Assembly (NCBI GenBank): GCA_023205875.1
Contig: CP060755.1
Span: forward strand, 310,001 to 374,000
DNA: 64,000 bases
Source of the DNA: Chloropicon primus
Taxonomy: Eukaryota
Direction of reading: 5' to 3'
Made by a program: the position numbers and the translations under genes. Under the pieces are notes generated by a model, which saw only the letters and a list, made by a program, of their open reading frames with translations, made no database searches and was not told the origin of the DNA. Positions within the stretch are counted from its first letter, which is position 1, and every line of letters starts with the position of its first letter. Shown here in pieces: positions 2,826 through 51,348 of the stretch.

Positions 2826-3177
2826 CCTCCCGCCGATCCGATCGACTGCCTCGCTCGTGAAGAACGAAGCGAGCGGGGGGGGGAGAAAAAGGGTATATAT
2901 ACGCAAAATTCGCACCTTCCTTTATCATACGTTCATACCTACGTGAAAATACCCGATCCCATCAGAACTCGGAAGTCAAGCGCGTGTGGGCGAGATCAGT
3001 ACTGTGGTTGGTGACAACACGGGAATCTCTCGTGGCGTATGTTCTTTTTTTTTTTTATCTCCAGAGCCCGGATCGACTCTCGCGCCCCGCAATCCATCCA
3101 TCTCCTCGCGAGCGCTCGCGAAGAAACCCACCCAGCCAAGGCCAAAGCCAAAGAGAGATGATGATTCCTTTATTACA

Positions 3178-4578: not shown

Positions 4579-4701
4579 GGGGCTATGGTCTAGTGGTATG
4601 ATTCTCGCTTAGGGCGATTCGATCCTAAGATTCGATCCTAAGAAGTTCATCAACGAGCTATAATCTGCGAGCGGTCCCGGGTTCGATTCTCGGTAGCCCC
4701 C
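4579..4701 (+). tRNA. trnP-AGG: tRNA-Pro(AGG) with 51-nt intron (4615-4665) at canonical position 37/38
   Basis: Acceptor stem GGGGCTA/TAGCCCC, D-arm TGGTCTAGTGGTATGATT, anticodon arm CTCGC-TTAGGG..TGCGAG, T-loop GGTTCGATTC. Confidence 0.92.
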
Positions 4702-4790
4702 TCCCCGTTGAACAACCAAGACGGAAACAACACCGCGGCGAAACAACAGCCGCCTTACCTCTTGCTCCGTGAGACAAGGGTTCTATGAGA

Positions 4791-4896
4791 GACGTTAGTT
4801 ATACAAGGGTCACAACGAGATCGTAACGGCGGAGGACGGCGACTGACGTTAGTTATACAAGGATCACAACGAGATCGTAACGGCGGAGGACGGCGA
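4791..4896. repeat. 54-bp-period tandem duplication upstream of the recombinase ORF
   Basis: gacgttagttatacaagg(g/a)tcacaacgagatcgtaacggcggaggacggcga starts at 4791 and again at 4845 (1 mismatch). Confidence 0.95.
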
Positions 4897-5023
4897 GGAG
4901 GACGGCGAGGAGGTGTGTGACCTGGCGGGAGCTGGAGAGAGAAAGAGAGCCGCCGTAACGCCAGAGCCGCGAACGAGGCGGCCGACGAGTGGGGACGAGA
5001 AGACCACGACCAGAGAGAAAGCG

Positions 5024-7873
5024 ATGAGTTACCTCCTGGAATACTTCGGCTGCTGGTTGCCGACGAAGAAGAGGAGACTGACGAATACTGGGTCGTCATG
5101 TGAAGAAGGGGCTGGTGGCGCCACCCCGGCCGCGGTTCTCCAGGTGGGTGGCACCCAAGGATGGCGGGTGGCGCCCAAGGATTGTGGTGCCAATGTCTCT
5201 GTCTTCACCCACTTGCAGGGCAGCGGGCAGCCGTGCGGCGCGGTGGCACTCGGAACAAGCCTGGACACCAACGCTTGCACAGTGGCCCTGGCGATCTCCG
5301 CGGGACCTCATAGGGAGCGGGAGATGGCCGCCTTCGAGGAGAACGTGGATCCGACGACGCTTCTCAATGCGGATGGACTTATTGCCACTCTTGGCTTCGT
5401 AGACGAATTAGCTGGCCCGCGGCCCACCCTTGCACGCGAGGGTACACGGGCGGAGCGAACTCGCGAGCCTGAGGAGCTGACCCTGGTCCGCGTGGTCCGA
5501 GGCCGTGGCGGAGTCCACCTGGAGCGCGTTGAGGGCTTGAAAGAACTGACCCACTGCATCGTCTTCCTCCGCGAGTCCCTTGCGCAGGAGGGGCTTGGGA
5601 ACAGGCTCGCTGGTCAGGCGGCCACGATCTCAAGCGCGTTGCTCGGCAAAGATCTTCCTAAACAGGTGAAAGCATTTCGTTTCGTGGAGCTTGGGACCGC
5701 CAGCCGCTCGCGATGCCTCAAGGACCGCAAAGTTCTTACGAAAGCTCTTGCCCTTGCGAAGGAGAAGGGCGAGCCTTGCGCGCTTCTTGTAGCTGCCTTG
5801 TCGCGATTGTCGAGACGGTCACAAGCTGACGAGGACCTCGACTACCTTGCTGAGCGCGCAGGGCAGGCCTCTATACTGGCGTGTATCCCGACGTCCCATG
5901 CAGCAGCTTTGATTGGGGAGGAAAAGAAAGAGGAGCTCAAAAAGTACATGAGCAAGGCTGCAAGCACCTCGGACGGGCACGCCGTGTACTCGGCGTCGCA
6001 CTGCATGCTCAAGTCCGGCGCCACCCGTTGTTCTGTAGCATCGGGCCAACACACTTCTGAGGAACTTTGTCTCCTCGTCGAACACGTCGAGCACGTCCTG
6101 AGGCACAAGCTGGAGAATCTGGAGAAGCCGGGGGAGCAGAAGCACGGGAAACCCCTTCTCCTCGTAGGTATTGCCCGTACGTCGCCTGGAACTGACGTCG
6201 CCAAGTCTACTTCGATATATGTCCAACGGTGCCTACTCCTCCACGTCCTCCTCAAGGTGCGCGACAACCTTCAGAAGGATGTTGCGCTAAGCGGGAAACT
6301 GCCGGTGATTGAAATCACAATTGGGACCTTTGCAGAGAAGTGTGGAGGCTCGACCTCGGAGGAGGCTGCCGTCCAAGAATGGGTGAAGAAGGTCTGCGAC
6401 GAGGGCAAATACGCAGGGGGCGTTCTACTCTGCACCCGTGCAGATCGGCTTACAAGGGAGCTTGCGACACTCGGGACGCTCTTGGAAAGGTGCTGTAAGG
6501 CGAACATAGCAACGGTTGCGTGCTTGACAGAAGTGGATGCCGTCGTCACCGAGGAGAGACACGTTCAAGAGGCCGTAGCCCAGGTTCTCGCTGGAGATGA
6601 GGAGTATCTTCTTGGAAAGCGCTTTGTGGAGCAACGGGCGAGTGATCTCGTCCGCGCATGGAAGAACCAACCCACAGTTCGTGTGCTCGTCGCTGCTTGT
6701 TCCATCACGGAAGCGAACTACGACATCATTCTTCGCGAGGAGCACATGGAGTTCCTGGAGACCTACAGGCAATACTGCCACGTTCACTCCGTGAGGGACG
6801 AGTTGTTTGAAAACCGTGATGGACACGGCTTGGATGAAGACGCATTGAGCAGAGTCTTTGAGTACTTTGCGGATGCACTAAAGGGAGAACATGTCGATGT
6901 CGTGTTTGAGAATGAATGTTTCCCAGAAACCGCGATCTCTGTGACTCAAAAAGATTTCTTCGAATGCCCCTGCGCTGGTAAATGCTCTCGCAAGTCGTCC
7001 AGGACAACAGGCACCGCGAACACCGCTCCAGCACATACTCGATGCCTTTGTGCTTGTGACATGTGCAAGAGGAGTCGTCCTTGCATTCTGGTGGACAGCG
7101 ACGCCGAGGACGGCGGGGAGAGGGAGAGAGAGCTTCGCAAATTTGATGCCGCTGCATGTCCCTGTGGACCTTGCAGCAGCAGCCCCTCGAGCACTGGTAC
7201 GACAAGGAAGACACAGGCCAAGACCAACACGAAAGGGAAGAGGAAGGCCAAAGCAAGGAAGCCGATGAAGGAGTTTCCTCGACTTCCTACTACAGACGGT
7301 ACTCAAACCCTGCGCTGCATCTGCTGTGATGCTTTTCGTCGCCCTGAGTGCCCCTTGGTCAAAACAGGAGCTCTGACCCCGGTTCCTGGGGAGGAACGTG
7401 ATCGAGGTGGGCACAAACCCAATTACCTCTTGTCGAACTGGTGCTGGTACTGCCATCGTTTCATATTCAAAAGCGGCTTTAACCAGTGGTGTTCGTTCGG
7501 TTGCTTCTTGAAAGCCACGAAGTTCGTGGACAAGAAGGAGCTTTGGGACATGAGCAAGGAAATTGGCATGACACAACTGAAGAACACGATTGGCTTCTGG
7601 TTTTGTGTTCCGTGTACAAAGAAACCTGAGTCCGAGGAAGCCTTGATCGAGAAGATCCCCTCGATCCCCTTGATCCCAACCAAGGGTTCAAGGGGCTTGA
7701 GGTGCTTGTCCTGCAGTCATAACGATTGCAAAATCGGCAAGGGGTACAAGGAGAACGCAGAAGGAGGCGGCGTGAACGTTGGCTCCGGCCGGCAGAAGTC
7801 CGAGAACAGAAAGGCCAAAGAGGTAGTGATCCCGCATCCAATGCTCGTCAACATGATGCTACAGGACTCCTAA
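5024..7873 (+). CDS. Large protein with two tandem serine-recombinase (resolvase/invertase) catalytic domains and a Cys-rich C-terminus
   Basis: Domain 1: CIVFLRES..GLGNRLAGQAATI..FVELGTAS..DRKVLTKALALAK..LLVAALSRLSR. Domain 2: VGIARTS..STSIYVQ..FAEKCGG..VLLCTRADRLTRE. Many CxxC/CxC clusters follow. Intronless; first ATG 5024. Confidence 0.75.
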   Translation: MSYLLEYFGCWLPTKKRRLTNTGSSCEEGAGGATPAAVLQVGGTQGWRVAPKDCGANVSVFTHLQGSGQPCGAVALGTSLDTNACTVALAISAGPHREREMAAFEENVDPTTLLNADGLIATLGFVDELAGPRPTLAREGTRAERTREPEELTLVRVVRGRGGVHLERVEGLKELTHCIVFLRESLAQEGLGNRLAGQAATISSALLGKDLPKQVKAFRFVELGTASRSRCLKDRKVLTKALALAKEKGEPCALLVAALSRLSRRSQADEDLDYLAERAGQASILACIPTSHAAALIGEEKKEELKKYMSKAASTSDGHAVYSASHCMLKSGATRCSVASGQHTSEELCLLVEHVEHVLRHKLENLEKPGEQKHGKPLLLVGIARTSPGTDVAKSTSIYVQRCLLLHVLLKVRDNLQKDVALSGKLPVIEITIGTFAEKCGGSTSEEAAVQEWVKKVCDEGKYAGGVLLCTRADRLTRELATLGTLLERCCKANIATVACLTEVDAVVTEERHVQEAVAQVLAGDEEYLLGKRFVEQRASDLVRAWKNQPTVRVLVAACSITEANYDIILREEHMEFLETYRQYCHVHSVRDELFENRDGHGLDEDALSRVFEYFADALKGEHVDVVFENECFPETAISVTQKDFFECPCAGKCSRKSSRTTGTANTAPAHTRCLCACDMCKRSRPCILVDSDAEDGGERERELRKFDAAACPCGPCSSSPSSTGTTRKTQAKTNTKGKRKAKARKPMKEFPRLPTTDGTQTLRCICCDAFRRPECPLVKTGALTPVPGEERDRGGHKPNYLLSNWCWYCHRFIFKSGFNQWCSFGCFLKATKFVDKKELWDMSKEIGMTQLKNTIGFWFCVPCTKKPESEEALIEKIPSIPLIPTKGSRGLRCLSCSHNDCKIGKGYKENAEGGGVNVGSGRQKSENRKAKEVVIPHPMLVNMMLQDS

Positions 7874-7920: not shown

Positions 7921-8230
7921 AAAGCTGAAATATTCTATCCTCCTCCACCACACTATGTATGTCTCCGTTGACCGCCGGCACATCGTTCGTTCGTTCGTTC
8001 GTTCCATCCTCAGCCAATCCTGGCTGGCGGTCCTGGCTTCGAAGCCACTGCAGAATTTCGAGGTGACCTCCTTCAGCTGCCCAAGAACAAGTATCCTTGT
8101 CCCAATCACAAGGCGGGTCCTGGCTTCGAGCCCACTGCAGAACATCAAGGTGACCTCCTTCAGCTGCACCAGCACAAGTCCTCCAGTTCCAATCACAAGG
8201 CGGGTCCTGACTTCGAGCCCACTGCAGAAC
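7921..8230 (-). pseudogene. 5'-truncated ankyrin-repeat gene fragment (~2.5 repeats plus tail), paralogous to 3178-4359
   Basis: 8101-8209 is identical to 3666-3774; reads VLQWARSQDPPCDWNWRTCAGAAEGGHLDV...LRSQD; no in-frame start upstream. Confidence 0.85.
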
Positions 8231-8777
8231 CTATAATAGGGAACCTATAATAGGTTACGTGATCTTCAACACATCCTCAGGCTCCTCAGCTCGCACCTCA
8301 GCAGCAGCAGGACCTTCCCTTGCCCAAGCGTCCAGCCCATCCTTGATGGATGGATGACCACGAGCCACGGCACTAGCCAGACAACCTTGTGACCTTAAGG
8401 TGGTCCAACCTTGTCCCTCTCCCTCTTCCCGGGGAACAATAATAATAATAATAATAAGACGTTACGCCACGTCTTCTTCTTCTTAGGACACGACGACGAT
8501 CCCCAAAGCAGCCAGCACTTTGCGCTTCGTCGGTCGTCGGGGTTCGGTTCATCCAAGGTGCTGGTGCTGCAGCTGTCCTCTCGTCAATCCGCCACCGCGA
8601 AACCTCAGCCACAAACGCCCCAAGAATCTCCCACCAAATTTCATCATTGATCTCGTAACGGGGGGGGGGTTCAGGCGCTCCTGCTGCCAAGGCGCGAGCG
8701 AGCGAGAGTCGGCCGTCTCCGTCGGCCACAGTCAGTCAGTCAGTCCTCCTCCTCCCTCCTCTTTCTCCGTCGTCGTC

Positions 8778-10802: not shown

Positions 10803-11218
10803 GCGGGGTGATGGGTTGTGGACGATGAAAGGAGCAGCCTTGCGTGCCTACACGTTTCAAGACTCCAGATTCTGACACAGCCCACCAACCAAGCCTCGCC
10901 ACCGCCGGGGTGAGCTCCGACACGCCTGCATGAAAGTGTTTTACACTCGGCGCGGCTCCTCCCTCTTCGGGTAGGGGAGTAGCGCGGACGGTTTCGATTC
11001 GCATGGGGGAGGGCCGCAGATTACAATCGAAGGTACTTGATGGGGGTTACCCCTGCGTGATGGTATCGTATTAATCACAATGATGTTACAGCACGCAGAC
11101 GCAGCGCAGGCCGTAGCTCTGGCGAAGTCCTGCGGGTGCGTCCATGAGTGTGAGCGCTCTCACCAGCGATCACACGAGGATTCTAAATTTGCAATTTGCT
11201 AAACTGATATGTGTATGT
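10803..11218 (+). repeat. Structured non-coding dispersed repeat, copy A
   Basis: Colinear with 50657-51135; its 3' half matches the reverse complement of 45076-45318. Confidence 0.9.
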
Positions 11219-27955: not shown

Positions 27956-27991
27956 TTTTTAGGGTTTTAGGGTTTTAGGTTTTTAGGTTTT
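27956..27991 (+). repeat. Short interstitial telomere-like repeat (TTTTAGGG / TTTTTAGG x4)
   Basis: tttttagggttttagggttttaggtttttaggtttt. Confidence 0.7.
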
Positions 27992-28271
27992 AAATGGGAA
28001 TTTTTGTTCTGGCCTTATCAGATATTTAATATTACTGGAATTGTCATTGGTCAGTCAGCGGGGAGGGACGACCCCAGAAGCGACGAGGAAGGAAGCGACG
28101 CGGAGAGTGGGAAGCAAGAGTGTTGCGAGTGGGGGATGGGATTGTTCTGCTTTGAGGTTCTCACCGCACCTTGGAGGGGCGACGTTTCTTCGAGGGGAGG
28201 GGAAGAAATCTAGAAATCTTTTGCAGAGCAAGGGCGTGACCCTGCCGGTGGTTGGGCTTCGGGTGGCCACG

Positions 28272-45075: not shown

Positions 45076-45318
45076 ACATATTACATCAGATTTAGCAAAT
45101 GAATCCTCGTGTGATCGCTGGTGAGAGCGATCACACTCATGACGCTACCCGCAGGGCTTCACCAGGGCTTCGCCCTAGCTTCGGCCTGCGCTGCGTCTAC
45201 GTTGCTTCTCATCATTTGATTACACGATACCATCACGCAAAAGTTACCCCGGAGGGTTACTCCCATCAGGTACCTTCGATTGTATTCTATGCGGCCCTCC
45301 ACCAGCGAATCGAAACGC
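45076..45318 (-). repeat. Structured non-coding dispersed repeat, copy B (5'-truncated, inverted)
   Basis: Reverse complement is nearly identical to 50884-51135. Confidence 0.92.
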
Positions 45319-47459: not shown

Positions 47460-47614
47460 GTCGGTCGTGCGGAGCCGAACAACAAGTCGAGAGACGGAAT
47501 GGTCACCGAGAGTGACAAGAGCGCGCGTGTGGTCGGCCATTGTCAATTGCCTTTGGACAACCACGGGACCCAAGCTCCCTATTTGTAATGTAATCCAAAT
47601 ATCTTATCCATAAG

Positions 47615-48060
47615 ATGGGTGGAGGAGGAGGGTATCGTCGTTCCCGGGAGGGTTGTTGGACGTTCAGGGGGTCCGCGCACTATCAGTTCCACCTCGTCAA
47701 GTCCTCTGTCGCTCGCCAATACGTCCCTCCGGTAAGTTCCCAACAAGCAAACCTTCCTGTCGCACTCACCATGGACTGAACTGAACTGACTCCCCCCCAC
47801 ACACACACACACGCACGCACACGCACGCACTCTCTCACTCTGTGTACGGACGCTTGGATGATGGGATGGGATGGGACGCGCTTGCCGTCGTCGTGCAGGA
47901 GATGCCTCTGGTGGAGTTGAACGGGTACACACTGGGAGGCTTCTACTACGCGAACTACGAGGATAGCCCTGCCGGTCCGATGGATGAGCTCGTGGTGCTG
48001 TCCGGACTCGTTTGGAATGCCCCGACGTCCTGTGCTTGGGCCTCCCACGTCCTCCTCGAT
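47615..48060 (+). pseudogene. NXD1: NEOXANTHIN-DEFICIENT 1-like gene, 3'-truncated at the Fanzor element; intron 47732-47898
   Basis: WTFRGSAHYQFHLVK|..LVELNGYTLGGFYYANYEDSPAGPMDELVVLSGLVWNAPTSCAWASHVL; similarity then ends and no C-terminal half was found in the window. Confidence 0.75.
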
Positions 48061-48061
48061 C

Positions 48062-48165
48062 TCAAGAAAGATCTTATCCAGTGTCCTGCTTGGTTTCAAC
48101 CTGGATCCATAGCCCTTGCCGCTACAGAGGGCGTCGCAGCGCTGGCGGCCAAATCTCGCGTGGGA
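48062..48165 (-). ncRNA. Putative Fanzor omega-RNA scaffold / element right end (boundaries approximate)
   Basis: Overlaps the Fanzor stop; minus-strand stems CGCTGCG/TGTAGCG and ATCCAG/CTGGAT enclosing GGT-TGAA-ACC; position is typical for TnpB/Fanzor. Confidence 0.45.
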
Positions 48166-50171
48166 CAGACCAATTTTGTGCATGGAGGAAAGCACTGGCG
48201 ATGGCGAGGATGTTGTCCGAGCCGTTATCGTCGCGGGGCACTTCCATACTGCATTTGGGGCAGGACAAAACTCCGTACTGGGGACGTCCCTTCTTTGATG
48301 GTGGTCCGTTTCCTCGGCTTCTATCACTCTTGTGCACTCTCCGCAGCGCAGTGGAGATGTTCTTCTGAGAGCATGCTGCGCACATCTTGGAGGTGTTGTA
48401 TTCATCGACGAAGAAGAATCTCCCTGGTGTGGTCTTCGTCACCAAAAACCTTTTGAGCCCGATGCAAGGCCCGGGAGGGCGTCCCCTGATGCCAGAGGGG
48501 AAGTTTGCGGCTCCGCAGAAGACGATGTGTGACGCCGTCGGGAAGAGTTTGCTTGCTATGAACTCCATAGTTCGCTGCTTTCGCCCAAAAGTCTCCAACC
48601 CTTTTCGACGCCAGCGCCGTTGCCCCAAAAAAATCGATGGCGTTGGAGAGGAAGGTGAGCCGGGTCCCAATCGCCGCCTGGAGGCGATCTACACTTGTGA
48701 GCTTCAGAGAAATGGCGCGGTCGTTCAATCTCTGTTGGAGATTGTTGGGGGCTCTGCTCAGCCACTGGTGTGCCAAAATATTCCTCTTCGTGAAACCACA
48801 GCGGTCGCGGTAAGCGGAGAGGTGAAGAGAAAAGGTCCTCTTCCTCCCCCTCTCCAGAATGTTCGCGTAGACGACAAAAATTCGGCCGGGATCAACGCCC
48901 ACGGTGTTCCGGGGATCGAACTGAGAAGGCTTGGTGGCACACCGCTCCCCTTGGCCTATATAGTTGTTGTCGGGACGAGCGAGGATCACCTCTTCGACAA
49001 CGACCACGACGCTGAGGCCATCGGTTCGAAAGTGCCTAGCGAATGCCTTGGTACGTCCATTCGTGTGGCCCTTCTTGGCGATGTTGTTCACCTTCTTGGT
49101 GAAAATCTTCTCCCACCCACGGCCACCATCATAGCCCCAGAGTTCCAGGCAAGATCGCGAGACATTGATCATTGGATACTGCACCCGGCAGACAGGCACC
49201 AGAGTGAAACGCTTGATCGGAAGGTCCGAGGCCTCTACCGTTTTGAGCATCATATACCTGAACACGACCATGTTTCTCTCTTGCTCCGCGGGGTCGAGAA
49301 CGTTGTCGGTGCCGTGCATAAAGTCTGCAACGCCAAAGCCCTGAACGAGGGCCAGCTCGTTGTGGTAGTGTTGAACGAGGTCGGGGCTCCGGGGCTGCGA
49401 CTCGCTCAAAAGGGCTGCTCGGAGAGCGGCAGCCTCGGATTTGTTCAGTTGGTACTTTGCTCTCAGGTATTGCTTCATGTGATTGAAGGTCCCGTACTTG
49501 AGGAAGTTTGACCAATTCGTCCTGAGAACTTGTGCAGCTTCCGTGATGACATGCGACAGGAGCGCCCGCGATGGCAGACGCAGAGAGGTCTCGGCAGCTG
49601 TGGCGGCCTGAACCAACGCCGCCATGGATGCCTGGAGCAATGTCCACTCCTGTGACGTTGGTTCCCTCGAATTGGGCGTGTGGGAGACGGTGCGGAGGTA
49701 GTGACCTATCGAAACCCGATCCATCGCTGGAACACACCTCCAAAACCTCCTCTTGAGGAGTTGGATGTCCGCCACCGGCCCCCCCTCCCGCTCAGCCCTG
49801 AGTTGATTGAGCTCAGTCACCATCTCTCCGCACCGACGGTGAAAGGTTTCGAGATCAGCAGAAGCCCCGGGCAGTTCCCCAAGCCGACGAGCATGGTGGA
49901 GGGCCATCAACACCGTGCCGAGATGGGTTATCAACCCCATTCTTCTTGAGGCATCCTCCAATTCGACCCCAAGGCTGTCCCGCAACCTGGGCTGGAGAGC
50001 TGAATGGAGACCGATCTTATACGTCCTAAAAATTTTTTTCTTCTTCCCCTTCTTCTCCTTCTCCTTCTCCTTCTTCCCCTTCCTCCTCTTTGAATGGGAT
50101 CGGCGAGGAGAACGCGAACCACGTAGACGCTTGGCAGTAGGACGTGAGGTCGAAGGGCCGTCGGAGGTCAT
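48122..50171 (-). mobile_element. Fanzor (eukaryotic TnpB-like RuvC nuclease, Fanzor1-like) gene with one frameshift near 48623-48633
   Basis: FRTDGLSV, RuvC-I VGVDPG, bridge-helix-like WRRKGLETFGRKQR, RuvC-II VDEYNTSKMC, CxxC..CxxC, RuvC-III RDDNGSDNI; basic NLS-like N-terminus. Confidence 0.88.
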
Positions 50172-50262
50172 GGTGTCGAAGTAGAGTTAATGTGGAAGTG
50201 CCCAGCCCCCCTCCCTCCCCCCCTCTCTCCTCTCCTCTCCTCTCCTCTCTTTTTTTGATGTT

Positions 50263-50325
50263 GTGGCTGTGGCTGTGGCTGTGGCTGTGGCTGTGGCTGT
50301 GGCTGTGGTTGTGGCTGTGGTCGTG
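50263..50325 (+). repeat. (GTGGCT)n microsatellite
   Basis: About 10 hexamer units upstream of the Fanzor ATG. Confidence 0.9.
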
Positions 50326-50656
50326 GAAATTTTGAAAGTGTCATCGGAGACCACGACCCTCACCCTCAGTTGTGAACGTCCGTCGTCGCACCAGGCCGGT
50401 CGCTTGCCCGAGCGACCGGCCTGCCCGAGCGACCGGCCTGCCCGAGCGACCAGCACTTCCCTTGGCGACGCCGTGTGCCCATCACCATGGTGTGCCCAGC
50501 CATGATGAAGCTGGGCTTCATTAGTCGAGACTGAGAGGGGCTTGCGTTCTCGTTTTTTGTTTCCTTGTGTTTCTTTTTTAAGTGAACGCGCCCCCATAGT
50601 CGAGGCCACAGCTCGAAGACTCAAAGAGCGTGCGAACTCGACAGTCCCTGGCATCG

Positions 50657-51135
50657 GCGGGGTGATTGGTTGTGGACGATGAAAGGAGCAGCCTTGCGTG
50701 CCTACATGTTTCAAGACTCTTGATTCTGAAACAGCCAACCAACCAAGCCTCGCCACCGCCGGGGTGAGCTCCGACACGCCTGCATGAAAGTGTTTTACAC
50801 TCGGGGCAGCTCCTTCCTCTTCGGAGTGAGAGTAGTCCGGATGGCTCTCTACATTGGATGGAAGTGTCACCTTCCATTCTAAGGCGTTTCGATTCGCTGG
50901 TGGAGGGCCGCATAGAATACAATCGAAGGTACCTGATGGGAGTAACCCTCCGGGGTAACTTTTGCGTGATGGTATCGTGTAATCAAATGATGAGAAGCAA
51001 CGTAGACGCAGCGCAGGCCGAAGCTAGGGCGAAGCCCTGGTGGAGCCCTGGTGGAGCCCTGCGGGTGCGTCATGAGTGTGATCGCTCTCACCAGCGATCA
51101 CACAAGGATTCATTTGCTAATCTGATGTACTATGT
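50657..51135 (+). repeat. Structured non-coding dispersed repeat, copy C (longest)
   Basis: Homologous to copies A and B; perfect 11-bp hairpin at 51076-51103. Confidence 0.92.
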
Positions 51136-51348
51136 AATCGTAATCCCTAATCCCACGGGAGGAAATTCCTAGAAGCCATTTCAGCCAAGAGATTGTCGGA
51201 GGAGCAGGGAGGCACGGAAGAGTCACTCGGAGAGAGAGGCCGTAGGGACGAGGAGGTGCGAGGGGGGGGACCATGGTGTGAGGACGGAGGGAACGCAAGG
51301 ACTGTGATTTTGCTTGCTTGTTTGCGCGGGAAGACCCTTGCGGAGGAC

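Follow-up and report, generated by a model that had tools for sequence, protein, structure and literature searches.

An undescribed structured repeat at the end of a Fanzor1 element in Chloropicon primus

What is the repeat that lies head-to-head with a Fanzor gene in Chloropicon primus, and by what route could such a sequence spread? The initial annotation of this 64,000-nucleotide stretch (hereafter the window) described about 480 nt of densely paired sequence, read it as a selected structure in a mobile noncoding RNA, and offered three identities: a SINE or ribozyme-bearing element, a Helitron-like end of the Fanzor element, or a stand-alone guide scaffold. We conclude that the repeat is genuine, has not been described before and forms the structured end of a Fanzor1 element. 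No published description of the repeat family was found, although bioRxiv supplements and Repbase/Dfam, which lay outside the search, may contain one.

Copies of the repeat and the unit that carries it

Self-BLAST and nhmmer identified three copies of the repeat, A, B and C (Table 1), and nhmmer found no fourth copy in the window. All of the motifs originally named are in copy C as placed. Block indels aside, copies A and C share the same base in 336 of 376 aligned columns (89%), and self-BLAST and alignment showed that copy B covers C only from position 50884 onward. The atggaag/cttccat hairpin is missing from A, which does contain ggggttacccc, and the number of 11-bp units differs by copy as reported, with 2.6 units in C, one fewer in B and two fewer in A. 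Two other stems were as described in C but not throughout: the terminal 11-bp hairpin (51076-51103) is perfect in C and has an uncompensated mismatch in A, and the nested gacgca/tgcgtc stem is present in C, with tgcgtc interrupted by one extra base in B. The statement that there is no convincing ORF needs qualification in that C contains a 96-codon ATG frame on the + strand, but this frame is not preserved by the indels of A. Beyond the terminal hairpin the tails are AT-rich and differ from copy to copy. The common start of the short copies is supported by loose contig ends at 50881 and 50883, where different flanks are attached, and three contigs end at the equivalent position of B.

Table 1. 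Features of the Fanzor1 unit and of the repeat copies (positions are those of the window).
Feature	Position	Strand	Evidence
Copy A, solo and diverged, begins at the base of the first stem	10803-11192, reaching about 11212	+	Self-BLAST
Copy B, short solo copy with unique DNA on both sides	45076-45318, from 45073 by self-BLAST	-	93% identity to C
Whole multicopy unit, oriented by its structured end	47613-51144	+	Contig depth, DNA run X1
5' fragment of host NXD1-like gene, start codon at 47615	47613-48045	+	Protein matches, depth 547-584
Predicted Fanzor omega-RNA scaffold, far end of element	48046-48121	-	76 nt past stop codon
Fanzor1 gene	48122-50171	-	Protein matches, domain, model fold
Spacer, includes microsatellites and a tandem repeat of 17 bp	50172-50656	.	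Multicopy in X1, depth 613-1144
Structured repeat, copy C	50657-51138, to 51144 with tail	+	Self-BLAST, alignment, contig depth
5' domain with box C/D-type kink-turn pattern	50657-50759	+	Pattern scan, A/C comparison
Common start point of the ~260-nt short copies, foot of ttcgatt/aatcgaa stem	50881-50884	+	Copy B, loose ends
Terminal 11-bp hairpin and fuzzy AT-rich tail, TGTAA at 51133	51076-51144	+	Copy comparison

Whole hairpins also vary between alleles. Heterozygous indels were taken from the available part of Supplementary Data 8 of Lemieux 2019. A 37-bp insertion in this set matches, by eye, the hairpin missing in A, and its coordinates indicate that the site is likely copy A itself. Similarly, a 78-bp deletion on chromosome 16 matches by eye a tandem module of a diverged copy, and the junction of this module is also present among the contig loose ends. 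The same part of the data set, with entries searched to 400 letters, contains no heterozygous insertion of a whole element.

Contig depth in DNA run X1 placed the repeat within a larger multicopy unit. Unique contigs flank this unit, one ending at 47642 (depth 135) and the other beginning at 51115 (depth 167), and depth between them was 547-1820; contig depth is not equal to copy number, and the edges given for the unit are inferred, allowing for a 31-base word overlap of contigs. From the captured NXD1 piece, depth rose to 804 over the Fanzor gene (~5 times single-copy), 929 at 49965-50200, 1144 at 50465-50622, 1133 at 50697-50804 and 1820 at 50905-51000 (the 3' half of the repeat, ~12 times single-copy), the climb being interrupted by a dip to 613 at 50331-50428, and then fell to single-copy at 51145. 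One annotation lists six Fanzor accessions, in line with the depth ratio near 5, and bases of the A type had a depth of 110-213, about single-copy. Among the matches listed, copies begin at 49782, 50657 (A), 50881-50884 (B and copies with other flanks), 50907 and 51071, whereas all of the copies listed end soon after the terminal hairpin. The stepwise depth and the drop at 51145 indicate that the repeat is very probably the fixed end of the Fanzor unit. It is not a separate neighbor of the Fanzor gene but physically part of a unit of 3.1-3.5 kb, and an extent of ~480 nt is too small. The suggested linkage to Fanzor was thereby borne out, and self-BLAST found no stretch of DNA shared by the repeat with either the recombinase (resolvase) locus of the window or positions 48046-48121.

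No terminal inverted repeats (TIRs) were found bracketing the unit. Neither a target-site duplication (TSD) nor poly(A) was present at A, B or C, where shared flank words reached at most 5-8 nt and none abutted both ends of a copy. We rejected an arrangement in which B and C are the arms of one 6-kb TIR element, as the intervening DNA is single-copy and there is no TSD. Internal deletion of two-ended elements was likewise rejected as the origin of solo copies B and A. The spacer between the repeat and the Fanzor gene likely houses divergent promoters; RNA contigs of runs X3 and X6 start at 50422, a weak hint of a promoter, and positions 50400-50660 fold no better than shuffles (z -0.9).

The Fanzor gene matches C. 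primus proteins at 98-99%, and gene order in the window is that of rows 02p12200-02p12240 of the published C. primus gene table. This copy contains a one-base frameshift at 48623 that is absent in contigs of three runs and in four database proteins. The chromosome 2 locus also has a second, differently broken Fanzor protein record, P0004. An unbroken relative, P0003, contains a Pfam Cas12f1-like TNB domain (E 5e-7) and has only distant homologues elsewhere (23 matches at E <=1e-10 among 1.8 billion). Its structural model (pLDDT 81) best matched SpuFz, PpFz and GtFz, and the top seven fold matches were all Fanzor1 structures; a single-sequence Fanzor model reached a pLDDT of only 34. The DPG, E, RD and two CxxC motifs are conserved in a 40-sequence alignment. 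As judged from the modeled fold, the nuclease belongs to Fanzor1.

Available descriptions give the SpuFz1 scaffold as 75 nt plus a 14-15-nt guide. By analogy, the 76 nt past the stop codon of the gene are predicted to be the omega-RNA scaffold. Other copies change flank at 48046, with two flank types seen, and two stems are predicted in 48046-48121, with a z of only -0.66 relative to shuffles.

On the far side of this putative scaffold is the captured host sequence, which matches proteins named NEOXANTHIN-DEFICIENT 1 and retains an intron (47732-47898) between exons that are in frame. Intact NXD1 is on chromosome 3, and partial copies adjoin Fanzor genes on chromosomes 2 and 5 (at least three rows of the gene table), indicating that the NXD1 piece moved along with the unit. 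Over 47900-48060 there are two differences from the intact NXD1 transcript, and two residues there are not those of the intact protein, from which we infer that 13 of the last 15 bases of the element (48046-48060) match intact NXD1 at the junction. This match is most simply read as homology-assisted joining, and these 15 bases could conceivably be an NXD1-derived guide. Both the spliced NXD1 protein and one whose sequence starts in the intron are recorded under transcriptome accessions, so intron-containing transcripts seem to exist.

Structure, candidate RNA classes and transcription

Copy C folded with a z of -3.5 on the + strand and -1.6 on the - strand relative to shuffles. Copy A by itself did not beat its shuffles in a global fold (z -0.66), and copy B folded slightly better on the - strand. 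With DNA folding parameters the values for C were -3.2 and -3.3, alike on both strands, and a local fold of C gave -2.4 on both strands, a level reached by 4 of 80 background window-strands. The structure is real and exceeds chance moderately. Energy alone settles neither the strand nor the type of molecule. UNCG loops had also been taken to favor the + strand; this argument is weak, as the - strand has a UNCG loop that is kept in C and A (by eye).

On the + strand the consensus fold of A and C contained 112 pairs with an energy of -120 and was accompanied by three double and eight single compatible changes, as compared to 94 pairs and an energy of -103 on the - strand; one-sided changes that preserve pairs numbered eight on + versus two on -. 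As nulls, the same 40 substitutions were scattered randomly (n=110) or the pattern was slid (n=124), each in two variants. The + strand consensus energy was reached by 0/110 and 0/110 scattered nulls and by 0/124 and 3/124 slid nulls. The corresponding values for the - strand were 0/110 and 4/110 scattered and 0/124 and 45/124 slid, the last being the slid null with A kept, which was not beaten. Double changes were not above the null, as the three observed were matched by 16-18 of 110 nulls and 70 of 500 shuffles, and under each copy's own fold only 4/14 and 10/20 of the changed pairs were kept. Thus, substitutions between A and C spare the common + strand fold, whereas covariation between these two copies was not significant. 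These comparisons lend moderate support to selection on a + strand structure, as first proposed.

The 5' domain of the repeat contains a kink-turn pattern in which GAUGA at 50678 faces CUGA at 50726, with a 3-nt bulge and an 8-9-bp flanking stem that carries one U-A to G-C double change. The pattern is complete in copy A, where 9 of 9 stem pairs form. The scan, which used the box C/D consensus, was set up after the motif had been noticed and several other RNA classes tried. Over both strands of the window it gave only two matches, namely C and A, as compared to 13 of 5000 shuffles with the pattern and 4 matches in 554,222 strand-bases of unrelated loci. The geometry used for the scan follows the available portion of PMC5579392. 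The frequency of the pattern is suggestive of a kink-turn in the repeat.

In Rfam the repeat had no match reaching the gathering score. When E values as high as 10 were allowed, the window and copies C and A returned only 5S rRNA, all else being chance matches, and a match to the catalytic core of a group I or II intron (IStron-like) was not among the results. The SINE option fared poorly, with no tRNA, 5S or 7SL RNA head and no TSD, poly(A) or simple-repeat tail, as did the ribozyme option, for which pattern scans for hammerhead and HDV yielded no credible fold. U3, SRP, MRP and telomerase RNA were also rejected, with no Rfam match and no 18S duplex of at least 11; by eye, a telomerase template for the CCTAAAAA telomere is not present. 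In a search for rRNA-antisense guides of 10-21 nt that end at a D or D' box, made with foreign eukaryotic 18S, 5.8S and positions 1-2260 of the 3401 of the LSU model, the one hit was an 11-nt LSU antisense match 8 nt from a D box, which is at chance level (43 of 130 windows, 0.33). Exact-pattern scans for the repeat gave zero matches in viral contigs and zero in metagenome contigs, a distant blastn search gave no phage match and two 31-nt plasmid matches (E 0.5), and four viral Fanzor loci (23-27% identity) had nothing in common with the repeat.

Part of the stretch was found in 17 runs of 12 studies, six of which are recorded as RNA. RNA contigs (X3, X6 and X7) cover 50422-51109, and in metatranscriptome X7 depth was present in only 6 of 30 bins, all within 50389-51174; these runs were picked by this same query, the contigs are strandless, and uncovered bins in RNA contigs were not counted. 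As several of the RNA contigs, including some of X6, continue into other, host-like sequence, a transcript of the repeat's own is not established. Words of the stretch were missing in three DNA runs from samples of two metatranscriptomes that contain them; one same-sample RNA run lacked them equally, so absence from the DNA runs is no evidence of expression.

Possible routes of movement

Our leading reading, which we hold tentatively, is that the repeat is the folded 3' RNA end from which a non-autonomous, retroposon-like unit is copied. One fixed end, staggered starts, the + strand fold, the kink-turn pattern, the UGUAA and the NXD1 start would all fit copying from a + strand RNA, and a captured piece that begins at the NXD1 start resembles what a transcript would give. 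According to this model, a + strand transcript would end after the UGUAA in the tail, the poly(A) signal of green algae, and the copying machinery would take hold of this RNA by its folded, kink-turn-bearing 480 nt. From there it would be copied into new sites by a reverse transcriptase whose gene lies elsewhere. Copying would begin at the fixed end and often halt at the foot of a stem, resulting in solo copies such as A and B, while rare long transcripts, for example by read-through from an NXD1 promoter, would give full copies with Fanzor, the scaffold and the NXD1 5' end. Fanzor itself would be a passenger: it would be expressed from the opposite strand, and its guide scaffold would lie at the other end of the unit. 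It is doubtful whether, in addition, the kink-turn recruits host Snu13 to the 3' RNA of a retroposon carrying an intact antisense Fanzor and captured gene starts.

Several observations count against RNA copying: the NXD1 intron is kept, neither a TSD nor poly(A) was found at A, B or C, and a reverse transcriptase partner was not found. The double changes that do not exceed the null, the few changed pairs kept under each copy's own fold, the similar z values of both strands with DNA parameters, the strandless RNA contigs and the dip in depth at 50331-50428 also weigh against it. There is no mobilizing reverse transcriptase in the window, and the mobility-related rows among those listed from the gene table are the telomerase reverse transcriptase, the only one of its kind, one PIF1 and IS605-type rows. 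Penelope-like elements, for their part, retain introns. As described in the available sections of PMC8557442 (Craig et al. 2021), non-autonomous Chlamys elements of this group such as MRC1 share with our unit 5' truncation, a kept 3' end, the lack of a canonical hammerhead and internal tandem duplications; another copy of our repeat has a 78-bp internal tandem module. In contrast to these elements, the C. primus unit showed no pseudo-LTR within the window, no (CA)n/(C)n target and no partner reverse transcriptase that we could find. Fanzor cargo has 0 occurrences in that paper.

Alternatively, the repeat could be the origin end of a one-ended rolling-circle DNA element of the Helitron2/IS91 type, with stems that act in single-stranded DNA and copying that stops early or reads through into flanking host DNA. 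We consider this possible but unlikely. The fold of C with DNA parameters, a hairpin 27-41 nt from the end, the lack of TSD and poly(A), and the retained intron in the captured piece would all be accounted for. In addition, the Fanzor1 elements CRe-1, -2 and -3 of Chlamydomonas reinhardtii, as reported in the available text of PMC3627910, likewise represent green-algal elements with a Fanzor1 passenger, an over-represented end and truncation or flank capture at the other. The Helitron2 features present in our unit are the subterminal 3' hairpin and the one-ended over-representation. However, asymmetric terminal inverted repeats (ATIRs) were not found between its ends, either as 8-15-bp repeats in the 25 longest of 111 inverted pairs or by eye between 48046-48075 and 51060-51110. 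A TTTT-like, T-rich insertion site is absent from the 5' flanks of A, B and the unit, and the gene-table rows listed include one PIF1 gene and no helitron that could supply RepHel. Thus, relative to CRe Helitron2 as described there, the C. primus unit showed no ATIRs, TTTT target or TSDs. In C. reinhardtii the 3' end is over-represented and the guide RNA maps within the element, to the 3' UTR of its Fanzor transcript (PMC10530073, available part), whereas the over-represented, fixed end of our unit is upstream of Fanzor, away from the guide side. A conserved structure of 480 nt with a kink-turn is also larger than the short hairpins in the descriptions of HUH elements that we drew on. The initial proposal of a Helitron-like end was therefore upheld as to the end of a Fanzor element but not as to the Helitron2 hallmarks.

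It is improbable that the repeat is instead a host structured noncoding RNA gene, of a long or clustered box C/D type, and that the Fanzor element picked up one of its copies. Copy A, which has the complete kink-turn and is diverged and about single-copy, would then be the likely resident gene and the short copies pseudogenes. Ostreococcus has long, stable polycistronic and orphan snoRNAs (PMC7671301, available part), and in box C/D snoRNAs as presented in the available parts of PMC5579392 and PMC7671301, C and D boxes likewise face each other within the terminal stem. Unlike these RNAs, the repeat has no guide beside the D box, the chance-level LSU match lying away from it, and sits in a 480-nt mobile end. 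The Rfam result, the metagenome and viral scans without a match, the polymorphism of entire hairpins, even between alleles in the available indel data, and the termination of the unit exactly at the tail of the RNA also argue against a host gene.

Movement of the unit by the multicopy serine recombinases of this genome (IS607-like), or by repair of Fanzor cuts alone, with an incidental or regulatory structure, is quite improbable. Resolvase-domain genes form the only abundant family of mobile enzymes that we observed, neither TIRs nor TSDs occur in IS607-type elements according to the available text of PMC3627910, and the junction match to intact NXD1 suggests homology-assisted joining; yet the repeat and the resolvase locus have no sequence in common and their gene numbers are not adjacent, staggered one-ended copies do not fit recombinase ends, and the opposite end should be the more abundant one if repair were primed from the guide side. 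Least of all do we expect the repeat to be a stand-alone guide scaffold, used by this nuclease or a different RNA-guided one and taking its guide from the 3' flank: a fixed 3' end followed by a variable flank and the ghost guide loci known in fungi from partial accounts would suit this very unlikely reading, but the repeat is six times the length of the SpuFz1 scaffold, is unlike 48046-48121 and has a fuzzy rather than sharp end, and a scaffold-sized, two-stem segment is already present at the other end of Fanzor.

Related elements and other features of the window

The closest layout, matched by description in the available text of PMC3627910, is that of CMe-1A/TE-N2_CMe of Cyanidioschyzon merolae. 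CMe-1A is an unclassified Fanzor1 element of ~3 kb without TIRs, the 5' 635 bp of which also occur as a separate repeat, TE-N2_CMe. Both it and the C. primus unit reside in a compact algal genome, lack TIRs and have a Fanzor-upstream end that is also a solo repeat. They differ in that the C. primus unit has ~6 Fanzor copies at 98-99% identity, as compared to ~150 at 80% for CMe-1A, and in that it contains a structured end with a kink-turn pattern and captured host NXD1, unlike CMe-1A as described. A second non-autonomous Fanzor element of the same species, the Fanzor2* element of Yoon 2023, has TIRs and 5-nt TSDs in the available part of PMC10711439, whereas the Fanzor1 unit has neither, and by eye the Fanzor1 protein differs from all nine Chloropicon rows there.

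Movement of TIR-less Fanzor1 elements such as CMe-1A has been an open question since 2013. The C. primus family is young, small (full copies number ~6) and for the most part intact, and its host is an alga that is kept in culture and has complete chromosomes, which makes the mechanism testable. If movement were RNA-mediated, the unit would be a curated case of a retroposon-carried Fanzor, that is, of Fanzor spreading via an RNA intermediate; in the available part of their report, Jiang et al. describe Fanzor only in proximity to LINEs (PMC10530073). The family also provides an intact Fanzor1 that is divergent and has a 76-nt predicted scaffold, along with a new structured sequence in which a kink-turn pattern occurs.

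Several other features were noted in the course of this analysis. Some rRNA matches concerned other records: contigs L023, L040, L044, L063 and L066 are eukaryotic rDNA within prokaryotic genome records, apparently contamination, and 13 viral contigs (L001-L013) match an 18-nt 18S primer stretch exactly, with rRNA in 0 of the 10 scanned. Within the window, a solitary 5S rRNA gene is present at 2925-3043 (+), preceded by a TATA-like motif and followed by a run of T, and base composition shifts at an interstitial telomere-like array (TTTTAGGG, 4.6 copies) at 27957-27992. By eye, 4581-4700 (+) resembles a tRNA-Pro gene whose long intron contains a 13-bp tandem repeat; ARAGORN and Rfam missed it. 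Finally, positions 5024-7873 (+), together with 4581-4900 and 8026-8254, contain an ORF of 949 aa in which Pfam recognizes a resolvase domain (E 3.7e-10) and a further resolvase-like domain is visible by eye. This ORF adjoins a tRNA-like gene, a tandem repeat of 54 bp and 200 bp duplicated from the neighboring ankyrin gene, and its family is multicopy in C. primus, with 77-100% identity on many chromosomes and often in fragments. The locus looks like an undescribed serine-recombinase mobile element.
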